From the IMG/VR virus record IMGVR_UViG_3300044656_000238, positions 34,218 through 98,217 of that record: a stretch of DNA of 64,000 nucleotides; one strand, given 5' to 3'. This document shows, piece after piece, positions 45,001 to 64,000 of the stretch. Position numbers: made by a program. The DNA is from a virus (Duplodnaviria > Caudoviricetes). Numbering within the stretch: the first letter of the stretch is position 1; the number at the start of each line of letters is the position of its first letter.

Positions 45001-48000
45001 CGCCGGCAGGCTGGCTAGGAGGCGCGCGCCGGCCCCGGCGGGCGGCAGGGCGGCGGCGGGCTGCGTGGGCTTGGGCATCGCTACATCAACCCCTCCGGCT
45101 CGTGTTCGCTGTAGCCGGGCATGTGCTGGTCGGCGTGCTCCATCGGCGAGGGCCAGCCGTCGAAGTACAGCTTTCCGTCAGCGATGCAGACGTAGTCGAG
45201 GTCCGCGAGCTCGTCGAGTGCGGCTCGGACGTCGTCGGGGCTGCATCCGTTGGCGTTGGCCACCTGCTCAACGGTGAACACGCCTGTCCACGCCAGGAGG
45301 TAAGCACCCACACCTCGAGCGAACGCTGAGATGCGGTCGTCAAGGAGGAATTCACGGGAGACCATGGCGGGCGGCCTGAGGGCCACGAGGGCGGCACGCG
45401 AGACATCCGGGACTGCGGCCGACGGTTGGAGTACCGGCTCCGGGTCACAGGCGAGATGCGCAAGCTCAGACGCCGCGGTGTTCACGACCGTGACCGGGTC
45501 CCGCCGACCGAAGTCGAACCACTCGCCGTGTTTCCGGTACTTGCGGAACCGTTCGTGCAGCGCCTGCTCCAGTACAAGTCCACCCTCGGTCTGCCACAGC
45601 ACAGCCAGCGCTGCCGGCGACATGTTCTGGATGCTCCGCAGGCGACTTGCGATGTTGTTCGTGGTGCCGATCTTCACCAGCGGGCTCTCCGAGCTCCCGA
45701 TCAGGTACACGTACTGGGCCTGCTTGGCCATGGCTCTCCGTCCGGCTCGCGCGCGTCTACTTACGTAACTTTCAGTGGTGAAGTAAGTCCCTGAGATCAC
45801 CATCTACGGATCCCAGCCATGGTTTTGAGACCGCTGGGGTCTGGGGGCGCGCGGCGGCGCCCCCAGTTAGTTCCACTTCGTCTAGTTCCGCTTCTTCTAG
45901 TTCGGGCCGCAGCCACGCGGCCCCCGGGGCCGCACCCATGCGGCGGGGAGGGCCGCACCGGTGCGGCTGGGGGTAGGGGGCCGCACCTATGCGGCTGGGG
46001 TCCGACCTGCATCGTTGTCCCCCTTCCCCTCGCTGCGGGCGTCAACGCGGTCCTCGATCAGCGCGGGCTTGTAGTACTCGGCGATGGAGATCGGCCCCCG
46101 GTAGAACTCGCCCTGTGGCGGCTTGAGCTTGACCCGGTACACGTTGCTCGTCTGGGCGTTCTTCGTGCCGTCCAGCCGCACAGGGCGGCGCGTGCGGCGC
46201 TTCTCGACCGCGTCCCAGTACTCGTAGACCTTCTCGACCGCGCCCAGCTCCACGAGCCCCTTGACCGCCCGGTCGACCCAATCCACGGACTTGCCGTACC
46301 GCTCCGCGATCGTGTCTCGGCTTGGGTGCCCCTCGACCTTCCCCGTGGTCAGGTTGAGGTGCGCGCACACGAACTGGTAGACGGCCAGCTCGTTCGGGTT
46401 CGCCGTCGACAGCACGACCCAGGCCTGGGCGGCGGTGAACGGGAAGAACCCGTCGAACTCGTACTGGTCGTCTTCGTCGGGGTTCACGCATCACCGCCCT
46501 GACCAGCCGCGACACGGCGATGATCACGCTGCGCGCACAGCTGCGGATCAACGTGCAAAACTTGCGCGGCACGCTGTAGCAGCTCAGCGGCACAGGACGC
46601 GAGGAGGCGACGATGTCGGAGTCGGCCGGGCAACGCCCGATGCTGCTGCGCATCGTCGACACCATCCGAGCCCAGATCAAGGCCGGCGACCTGAGCCCTG
46701 GTGATCGCCTGCCGTCGACTCGGACGCTGGCCGCCGAGTACGGCGTGGCGATCCAGACCGCCCAGCGGGCGATCAGCGTGCTGAAATCCGAAGGCGTCGT
46801 CGAGGCGATCCCGGCCAAGGGCGTGTTCGTCAAGCAGCAGCCGAAGCGGCTCAGTCGCACCCTGTCGTTCCAGGGCACCCAGGACCAGGCGGTGGCCCAC
46901 CGGGGCAAAGTGCTGTCGACCGAGGTCGTCCTGGTTGAGCCCGACGAGGACATCGCGACCGCGCTGGGCTCCTGGACCGCAGACGCCGCGGTCTCCCGGC
47001 GCACTGTCTTCGCTGTCGACGGGGCCCCCGTCGAGATCGTCCGCACGTACTTCCCGGCGCCGCGCAACAAGCCGGTCGCAGCGCCGGATGCTGGGCCAGG
47101 CGACCTGACCGCAGAGTTGCGGCGGCGCGGCCACGATCCTCAGCGCCGGATCGAGCGGCTCCACGCGCGCATGCCGATGCCCGAAGAGGCGCGGGCACTT
47201 CAGCTGCCGCCGGGTGTCGCCGTGTTCCGCGTGCTGACCTCCATCTACGACGACACCGGCCTGCTCGCGGTCGAGGACGCCGTGCTCAACGGCGACCGCT
47301 ACGAGTTGCTCTACGAGCTGCCGATCCACGACTAGGCCCTCGCTGGTTCCGCTTCGAGCCCCCGTGACTCCGTCAGGGGGCTTTCTGCTGTATTGATCTC
47401 AACTCTGTTCGAACTGTAGCAGTACATCTGCTACAGTTCGAACACGATGAACACCGGCGAGTCGATCGCTCAATGGCGAACACGAGGAGCAGCAGTGATG
47501 GCGGACCAGCAGCACGACCCGTTGGAGCGCCACCTCACCGTCACCGAGATCGCCCGAGCACTTCGCGTCAGCGAGATGACCGTCCGCCGCTGGATCACCG
47601 CCTGCCGCCTACCGGCGATCAAGGTCGGCCCCAAGAGCTACCGCGTGCCCGAGTCGAGCTACCAGGGCTTCATCGCCGAACGCACCGTCACCCCGACAGC
47701 GCCGATGACGATCCCGACCGCTTGATACCCAGCCCATTGGAGGAGCCCGAGATGTTCGGCCTGAAGCCGCTCCGTGACGCCAAGTTTCACGACGACATGC
47801 AGGAACACCTCCAGACGTTCATCCGCTGGACGGTCGCCCCCGAGGAGTCCCCGACCGGCCGGCCCCTGTCGCGGGAGATGCTCGACCTCACCGCCCAGAT
47901 CGCGGCCGCCGCCGACCCGAAGGGCAGCGAACGATGAGCCCGCCCGCTCACGTGACGAGCCGCTGGCAGCGCGCTCTCGGCCGGATCGGCATCCCCACAC

Positions 48001-63000: not shown

Positions 63001-64000
63001 GCCATCTGCCGGTGAAGACTTGCCATCTGATCGGCCGCCGCCTGCCTCGCGGCCATCACATTGTCCTGGGCCTGCTTTTCCTGCCGCAGCGACTGCTGGT
63101 ACTGGTACTGGGCCTCGGTGACCGCGATCACGGCTTGCTGCTCACTGTGTCGGGCTGAATCGACCGCGTTGCCTGCATCCACGAGGGAATGCTGGGCCGA
63201 CTCGACACCACCGGCCGCAGCCACGACGGCGTTCTGCGCCGAGGTGACCGCATCGTCGAGCTGCTGGAACTGCTGCTGCGCAGTCAAGTTCGCGCCGGCC
63301 GCGGACACAACCGCGTCGGTGTACTGCTTGATCGCCGACGTGTCCTGGAGGTACAACTGCGCCGCGCTGAGCAACGTCGAGTCATAAGCCTCCTGCGACC
63401 GCTGAGCGTCGGACACCCTGTCGGTGTGGATACCGAGAGCAGCGGCGGACGCGTTGATCGCATCCCGCATGTCCTTCTGCTGCTGGATCGGGCCGGCAAG
63501 ATCCGTCTCCAGCGCTTTCCACGCGCCGATCTGATCATCGATCGCGTCGACCTGCTTCTGCGACGACTCCAACAGAATGCTGGACCCGGTCTCGCCCAGC
63601 TGCGCGTAGTTGTTCGCGTTGTCAGTGATCGCGTCCTTCTGCGCCTGCAACGCCGCGACTGTCTTGTCAATCGCCCCGTTCCCGGCAAGCAGCTTCTGCT
63701 GCATGTCCGAGATCGAGACCCCGTACTTCTCCAGGGTCTTGGCGTTGTTGTCGGTGGCGAGCTGGTTCGCGATCGTGGACTGGACGTTCGCGTCCAGCGC
63801 ACCGCCCGACTGCTTCAGAGCCTGAGCGAGATTCTGCGTGAACTGGGCCTGTTCCTGGGCCTTCTGGCTAGCTTCCTCGCTGTTCTGCCCGAACAGCTCC
63901 AGCGCGAACGACCCGAGGCCCAGCGCCAGACCGAGGGGGCCGGCCACGGTCTCAGCGAGACTCGCAGCCTTGGAGGCGAACCCGGCACCCGCCGCCGCGG

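Follow-up and report, generated by a model that had tools for sequence, protein, structure and literature searches.

The DNA analysed here (the window: 64,000 nucleotides, bases 34218-98217 and thus the last 64 kb of IMG/VR record IMGVR_UViG_3300044656_000238) probably belongs to a temperate siphovirus-type phage of a high-GC, presumably mycelial, actinomycete, in which a double-stranded (ds) DNA transfer cassette of the Streptomyces plasmid type appears to be built in between the lysis operon and the lysogeny/regulator region. As far as can be judged from sequence, the gene set for spread in virions is complete, an integrase and a putative attP are present for integration, and all sequence-level features of a TraB/clt conjugation system are present; maintenance as a plasmid is not supported. 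An earlier note on this stretch had proposed an integrative, conjugative phage-plasmid, of which the combination of a virion module and a kor-traA-traB-clt set on one circle is upheld here, while the plasmid part is not.

The record is a single contig of 98,217 bp, the first 127 bases of which match the last 127 exactly, as expected when the path of a k=127 assembly closes on itself, and the record is therefore a closed circle. IMG/VR lists it as a virus with direct terminal repeats as ends and a CheckV completeness of 100%, and without the redundancy the genome is ~98.1 kb, circular or terminally redundant. Origin of the window from a chromosome fragment was ruled out, as it belongs to this closed 98-kb virus record and has no host flank. 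G+C content ranges from 62 to 71% along the window, with the minimum near the integrase region (33-36 kb). Genes were called by third-position GC (GC3) and their products compared with Pfam, NCBIfam and PHROGs profiles, each library with its own cut-offs. No tRNA gene was found, and no near-identical DNA was identified in the phage or plasmid collections.

The cassette occupies 46.57-52.82 kb on the plus strand, opposing the late operon, and consists of the following features, the last entry being the gene that faces it:

46574-46582, plus strand: single CTGTAGCAG putative operator half-site, 39 bp 5′ of the GntR start
46613-47335, plus strand: GntR/HutC-type regulator with UTRA domain, Kor/TraR-like (GntR, E 2e-16; UTRA, E 1.4e-17)
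47407-47443, no strand: perfect 16-5-16 palindrome GTTCGAACTGTAGCAG-TACAT-CTGCTACAGTTCGAAC, putative Kor operator, lying after the terminator hairpin of GntR and before the transfer operon
47495-47725, plus strand: excisionase-family (HTH_17) DNA-binding protein (HTH_17, E 3.3e-9; TIGR01764, E 5.8e-11, above cut-off)
47737-48492, plus strand: small operon orfs, three or four in number, of which one has a CxxC pair (GC3 gene calls; no significant family)
48574-49764, plus strand: DUF2637 membrane protein (Pfam DUF2637, E 5.6e-27)
50155-50511, plus strand: TraA-like 118-aa orf, overlapping the traB start by 14 nt (NF041213 plasmid_TraA, E 2.8e-8, 34 bits, below the cut-off of 80)
50498-52615, plus strand: TraB, predicted membrane-anchored FtsK-family dsDNA translocase with a C-terminal winged helix (NF041214, E 7.6e-109; phrog_24831, E 1.4e-81)
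52639-52816: clt-like array, six exact GGGGTATC plus degenerate GGTATC copies in both orientations around a CGCGCGCG core
52818-53150, minus strand: small conserved gene convergent on traB (no family in Pfam or PHROGs; tblastn 55% identity in metagenome contig L033, also beside TraB)

All parts of the kor-operator-xis-DUF2637-traA-traB-clt series described in the earlier note were thus found in place, and its claim that they lie within 2 kb of the end of the lysis/tail operon agrees with a measured distance of ~1.6 kb.

The alignment of TraB to NF041214 covers profile positions 12-638 of 639, i.e. homology to plasmid TraB extends over the full length. Identity to plasmid TraBs is ~26-31%, and the protein matches TraB of pCQ3 (NC_013449; Streptomyces sp. 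W9), its best plasmid match, end to end (residues 39-704, 31% identity), with retention of the Walker A (GMSGSGKS) and acidic LEE motifs. Residues G293, G298, K299, E387 and E388 are invariant across 15 homologues. A model built with AlphaFold2 (AF2) on the homologue alignment (mean pLDDT 68.6) has long helices at the N-terminus (20-153), then an ATPase core and a disordered linker, followed by a C-terminal helix-helix-helix-strand-strand module (625-695) resembling a winged helix. Its best matches in the PDB are FtsK motor domains (E 6e-9), followed by the conjugation coupling protein TcpA and EccC/EssC. Together with the intact Walker A and B motifs, the model is consistent with an FtsK-like motor that has a membrane part at the N-terminus and a winged helix at the C-terminus. 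A single-protein query identified no close relatives of this TraB in IMG/VR and an alignment query was needed; the closest relatives (57-76% identity) are on Logan contigs, and the nearest genomic ones are in Pseudonocardia and Streptosporangiales metagenome-assembled genomes (MAGs).

Repeats of 8 bp are clustered beside traB. GGGGTATC is present in seven exact copies in the window (0.89 expected), six of them within 158 bp (52639-52796) right after the traB stop, and an untargeted scan of the 98-kb genome for clustered 8-mers returned only two sites, this array and one at 22.6-22.75 kb. Contig L033, which carries only the last 172 residues of a TraB (57-65% identical to the one here), has a homologous array (array word GGGGTGTC) in which all copies read GGTGTC, versus GGTATC here. 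As the same base is changed in every copy, the array would be a repeat read by a protein rather than drifting DNA, and the clt-like repeats look selected. The entire stretch from traB to the convergent gene (52616-52830) is inverted when compared to L033 (505-720), and recombination between inverted repeat copies could have been responsible. Other relatives (L025, L040 and L026) have their own heptamer variants, with words such as GCTACCC or GACACCC, and a locus-private 8-mer is present at least five times around the traB stop in 10 of the 29 TraB loci with downstream sequence. A one-residue code linking a TraB helix (RSRxWFRKEL) to the repeat word was rejected, as five relatives do not fit.

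The regulatory part of the cassette is also intact. The GntR regulator is 29-30% identical to the products of traB-adjacent GntR genes of pCQ3 and IMG/VR contigs. CTGTAGCAG is found exactly three times in the 64 kb, once before the GntR gene and twice as the arms of the palindrome, as for a putative GntR-type Kor/TraR repressor with its operators. A connection of the immunity switch with the Kor operator through ACTGTAG was considered and rejected as lacking significance. The excisionase-family gene, preceded by a ribosome-binding site (GAGGAG; 47484-47489), is the first of the operon behind the palindrome and its product may act as a recombination directionality factor. The TraA-like orf, in the frame of which GC3 rises, gave no pairwise BLAST match with pCQ3 TraA; the orf at 49601-50155 was rejected as traA (no similarity, poor coding signal). 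The DUF2637 protein, which is Spd-like in its position alone, may be a partner of TraB. DUF2637 genes neighbour TraB in 7/22 TraB-bearing records (in five of these at most ~1.3 kb upstream and on the same strand) and are absent from all 14 control genomes, and another is found near an FtsK gene on a Saccharopolyspora plasmid. The upstream gene in pCQ3 is unrelated to the DUF2637 protein.

The remainder of the record is that of a temperate tailed phage (Caudoviricetes), with terminase, portal, protease, HK97-type capsid, tail, tape measure and lysis genes as well as an integrase and a candidate repressor. The virion genes are on the minus strand, those for the large terminase, portal (PF04860, E 6.5e-44), head protease, HK97-type major capsid and major tail protein lying outside the window. 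The nearest portal from a cultured phage is that of Streptomyces phage Dagobah (39% identity). From 54431 onwards, as far as the end of the window, the minus strand carries lysis and tail genes:

54431-55621, minus strand: end of the lysis operon, with coiled-coil protein, membrane protein and holin (55301-55621) genes (phrog_8269 holin, E 1.6e-21; phrog_2344)
55664-57966, minus strand: papain-like peptidase, GH25 endolysin and phospholipase D (PLD)-like protein (Peptidase_C1, E 5.7e-10; Glyco_hydro_25, E 5.8e-22; PLDc_2, E 1.6e-11)
58411-61244, minus strand: distal tail, a 769-aa putative tail protein and a 165-aa protein (phrog_5313, E 2.9e-106)
61281-64000, minus strand: tape measure, C-terminal two thirds (tape-measure PHROGs, transglycosylase domain, NF052397)

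The reading frame of the tape measure is continuous across the contig junction, giving a total of ~1378 aa, and the synteny of the tail module is kept in ~80 IMG/VR phage contigs. Coiled-coil matches at the end of the lysis operon were found below the Pfam threshold only. Between the cassette and the lysis operon lie a 168-aa orf (53355-53861, plus strand) with an FHEAGHAV (HExxH, FtsH-like) motif and no family match in Pfam, PHROGs or NCBIfam, then a 47-aa zinc-ribbon orf and a strong hairpin, up to 54124. A fusion of a ParB-like nuclease domain with a DNA methyltransferase, plus a second methyltransferase, are encoded beside the packaging genes (genome positions 16533-18113 and 15293-16048; outside the window). 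A long early operon on the minus strand, encoding an AAA_24 ATPase, exonucleases and LuxR-type regulators among others, fills the left 33 kb of the window. A 794-aa orf in this part (9298-11682, minus strand) matches the MXAN_6230/SCO0854 RING-domain family (E 4.9e-106, below cut-off).

Divergent from this early operon is a plus-strand repressor-membrane protein-integrase cassette (33.8-36.5 kb), headed by the gene for an XRE-type helix-turn-helix (HTH) protein that may be the prophage repressor:

33820-34416, plus strand: XRE-type HTH protein, candidate prophage repressor (Pfam HTH_31, E 1.3e-7, above cut-off)
35038-36315, plus strand: tyrosine integrase of the lysogeny cassette (Phage_integrase, E 1.4e-17; weak Xer-family NCBIfam matches)
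36316-36490, no strand: unbroken non-coding stretch 3′ of int, putative intact attP (from reading of the sequence)

Comparison of the 221-nt stretch following int with 401 actinomycete genomes gave matches of 21-39 nt only, as expected by chance, and identified no attB. An RbpA homologue (39679-40173) is encoded in a regulator-dense island beside the putative attP, and two LuxR-type proteins (25399-26052, minus strand; 40082-40762, plus strand) each have two GerE stretches and no sensor domain. A perfect palindrome, CCCCTCATAAT-ACAG-ATTATGAGGGG (1569-1594), just 5′ of the gene for an Xer-like tyrosine recombinase (390-1562), could be a dif-like site or an operator.

The presence of int and a putative attP on the same window, as the earlier note had it, is borne out by these features; its two Rep modules and its plasmid persistence are not. 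The candidates for Rep are two HTH_36 proteins without kinship to each other, for both of which the match is below the Pfam cut-off. These matches, together with repeat arrays at 22.6-22.75 kb (iteron-like) and 45.93-46.0 kb, are equally typical of phage lambda-O-type origins. ParA (PF13614) is absent across the whole 98 kb, the same profile giving matches in 14/14 controls (PF01656 was not searched for), and the sole ParB-like domain in the genome is the N-terminus of the methyltransferase beside the packaging genes, leaving no partition gene. A segment of ~75 nt (~80% identity), regulatory-looking and containing a CTGGGGG...CCCCCAG hairpin, is common to ~22490-22580 and 45790-45870 (intergenic or 3′ regions), with one copy in the early region and the other just left of the transfer cassette, the latter beside three 23-nt repeats with a GCCGCA-N4-TGCGGC core (45926-45999).

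TraB is also found with virion genes in other phage records. Among 21 other TraB-bearing IMG/VR records, nine have a portal and/or HK97 capsid gene above the Pfam cut-off, and two further TraB-bearing records carry homologues of the terminase of the phage described here. G013 is a complete genome of 40.8 kb with direct terminal repeats, portal and capsid, in which traB is followed by CCGACGCA (5/5 genome copies). G021 (39.8 kb, rated 100% complete) has the same layout as here, with the shared tail gene, antisense TraB, then DUF2637 and GntR, and all five genome copies of its private word CTGACACC are directly 3′ of traB. G015 is a provirus with portal, capsid and TraB. Seen from the tail module, the combination is rare: 79 of 80 tail-module loci have no TraB within 10 kb, G021 being the exception. 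A different conserved TraB neighbourhood was seen in five metagenome contigs of 13-99 kb (L027, L030, L031, L032 and L034), where an Rv2179c-like exonuclease gene, its product 29-32% identical to that of 16094-16687 in the window, lies directly upstream of the TraB homologue.

The principle of a phage with a tra cassette is already known from pCQ3 and pZL12, and the window adds breadth and detail rather than a new principle. The precedent is in fact stronger than the earlier note, which held the concept to be not wholly new, had allowed. pCQ3 is itself a plasmid-phage by annotation, with GntR, traA and traB genes followed by a phage structural operon and by genes for a tyrosine integrase, ParA/ParB, ERF, RusA and WhiB, and it carries CTGACA(C) repeats with a GCGCGCG core 3′ of traB. 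pZL12, a laboratory precedent from 2010 (Zhong et al.), reportedly cycles between plasmid and infectious virion and transfers conjugally. The literature on Streptomyces plasmid-phages (PMC3583192, PMC4487206) treats pZL12 as one of them, and pSLE1 is described as pZL12-like, having been annotated through synteny with pZL12 and carrying ParAB and two integrases (PMC4487206). Like the phage here, pZL12, pCQ3 and pSLE1 are circular elements of ~85-98 kb combining a full tailed-phage structural operon, GntR, traA-traB and repeats following traB. However, only 6/143 proteins are common to this phage and pCQ3 and no homology of the backbones was evident; the phage backbone is therefore unrelated and the cassette was probably acquired independently. 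pCQ3 and pSLE1 have ParA/ParB, whereas partition genes were not found here. The cassette here lies just past the lysis operon end and is transcribed towards it, while that of pCQ3 is 7 kb upstream of the head genes and on the same strand. A classical integrase-repressor lysogeny cassette and a divergent TraB lineage also set this phage apart from the plasmid-phage precedents.

Similarities to the TraB-clt (TRS) systems of Streptomyces plasmids pSVH1, pIJ101, pJV1 and SCP2 include the FtsK-like membrane translocase with a C-terminal DNA-recognition domain, the 8-bp repeats beside traB, and a GntR-type repressor with operators before its own gene and the transfer operon (kil-kor). Here, however, the repeats are in both orientations around the CGCGCGCG core, the replicon is a phage, and a DUF2637 protein takes the place of SpdB2, SpdB3 and Spd79, which were not recognised. 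In describing the TraB/clt/TraR system, Thoma et al. 2015 (PMC4447253) suggested a role in the spread of phage DNA for the SpdB2 homologues that phiC31 and VWB carry. Cultured Streptomyces phages Gilgamesh, Jaresh and AndoPrime have annotated FtsK/SpoIIIE-like ATPase genes (PMC13587820), but the Gilgamesh protein matches TraB residues 313-591 only (26% identity), and no full-length TraB relative was found in the cultured phages of the collection searched.

If the cassette functions as in these plasmids, the GntR/UTRA repressor would bind CTGTAGCAG both in front of its own gene and in the pre-operon palindrome, keeping a potentially toxic pump off. Relief of repression would allow the operon to make the excisionase-family protein, the small proteins, the DUF2637 protein, TraA and TraB. 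TraB would then form a membrane-anchored FtsK-like ring, its C-terminal winged helix docking on the GGGGTATC repeats 3′ of traB, and could pump the circular ds genome of the phage, either as excised prophage or as replicative form, through septal cross-walls or into an adjacent hypha, so that spread would require neither virion nor receptor. With the excisionase-type gene coming first in the operon under Kor control, excision may be coupled to transfer.

Several points weigh against a built-in conjugation cassette. The record is a metagenome assembly (k=127), and a mycelial lifestyle is suggested by relatives only (the Dagobah portal at 39%; TraB kin in Pseudonocardia and Streptosporangiales MAGs). 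With 365 bits for TraB (NCBIfam equivalog cut-off 800) and 34 bits for the TraA-like orf (cut-off 80), both are divergent homologues, not equivalogs. There is no recognisable SpdB2: assignment of the DUF2637 protein to SpdB2 is unsupported, as BLAST gave no match for it among the collected phages (taken to include phiC31 and VWB), the SpdB2 of pSVH1 not having been compared directly. Finally, from its absence in 79/80 tail-module loci the cassette must be accessory and could be neutral cargo.

The same parts could instead serve infection, with TraB and the DUF2637 protein pumping replicating phage DNA across septal cross-walls as a viral movement system, through which a single adsorption event could exploit the whole mycelium. 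The cassette adjoins lysis genes and TraB-clt is present in complete 40-kb phage genomes, both in favour of such a role, which is not mutually exclusive with conjugation. However, a repressor and operator of its own, like those of plasmid kil-kor systems, and transcription against the late operon suggest that the cassette is controlled independently of the lytic programme, and we consider a movement system for infection rather improbable as its main function.

It is unlikely that the cassette is captured plasmid DNA, or DNA of an actinomycete integrative and conjugative element (AICE), that persists as neutral or decaying cargo and no longer moves anything. The rarity of TraB within 10 kb of the tail genes, the TraB and TraA scores well below the equivalog cut-offs and the lack of canonical Spd genes would be explained in this way, but none of the orfs is broken and their third-position GC is high, the 15 homologues show no variation in the catalytic motifs, and the operator and clt repeats are perfectly kept. 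The concerted change of the repeats in L033, beside a TraB C-terminus of 57-65% identity, would also be unexpected for decaying DNA.

A self-excising and self-transferring AICE or small conjugative plasmid nested in the phage, with the latter as a vehicle, seems very unlikely, even though the gene order (kor, xis-like, spd-like, traA, traB, clt) is that of AICE and plasmid transfer regions and an excisionase-family gene lies inside the cassette. AICEs are 9-24 kb in size. In common with pSAM2, SLP1 and pMEA300 (PMC2440964, PMC3218068), the phage has a tyrosine integrase, an excisionase-family gene, a GntR Kor and, by prediction, single-protein dsDNA transfer, but it differs in its size of 98 kb, in its complete virion module and in an integrase that does not adjoin the transfer genes. 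Own att ends, which would have marked the block as an independent element, were looked for and none beyond chance were seen, in keeping with the earlier claim that the cassette has neither an att repeat nor an integrase of its own: the two sides of the block share no exact direct repeat of more than 15 nt (the null had a mean of 13.9 and a maximum of 16), and there is no tRNA gene or tRNA-type att repeat. No integrase belonging to the cassette and no AICE-type Rep (RepSA, RepAM/DUF3631, Prim-Pol) was found among the orfs scanned with Pfam at 35-54 kb, of which the small ones were scanned in part and without a RepSA model; the same holds for the narrower interval of 36-54 kb. The sole nearby integrase is ~10 kb distant, embedded in the phage XRE-repressor/membrane protein/int-attP cassette. 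Because of these absences, the location of the integrase in the phage cassette and the 75-nt segment shared with the early region, the transfer cassette appears to be part of the phage genome.

Fusion of a plasmid or AICE contig to a phage contig of the same metagenome during assembly can hardly be credited, k=127 metagenome assembly notwithstanding, since G+C content is even over the junctions, the neighbourhood recurs in independent samples (tail gene, antisense TraB and GntR in G021; TraB 2 kb from a lysis peptidase homologue in L011; TraB convergent on a 62% identical PLD gene in L015), and the cultured plasmid pCQ3 carries the same combination.

For a built-in conjugation cassette that works, the phage would have two routes of spread, in virions and by direct pumping of its genome between hyphae without a surface receptor, which would change the view of host range, resistance and gene flow in antibiotic-producing actinomycetes and explain the recurrent FtsK-like genes of actinomycete phages. 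This record is a clean test case, with a closed genome, an intact repressor/operator pair, TraA, TraB and an 8-mer array, and the L033 array, differing by one base in every copy, provides a natural specificity pair. A broader possibility, which is doubtful at present and offered tentatively, is that TraB-clt is a widespread and repeatedly acquired cell-to-cell movement organ of tailed phages of filamentous actinomycetes, by which genomes spread without virions through mycelia and between strains. If this were true, receptor-based resistance would be escaped, the private and concertedly evolving repeat word of each phage would be an address label, and the border between phage, AICE and plasmid would be blurred.

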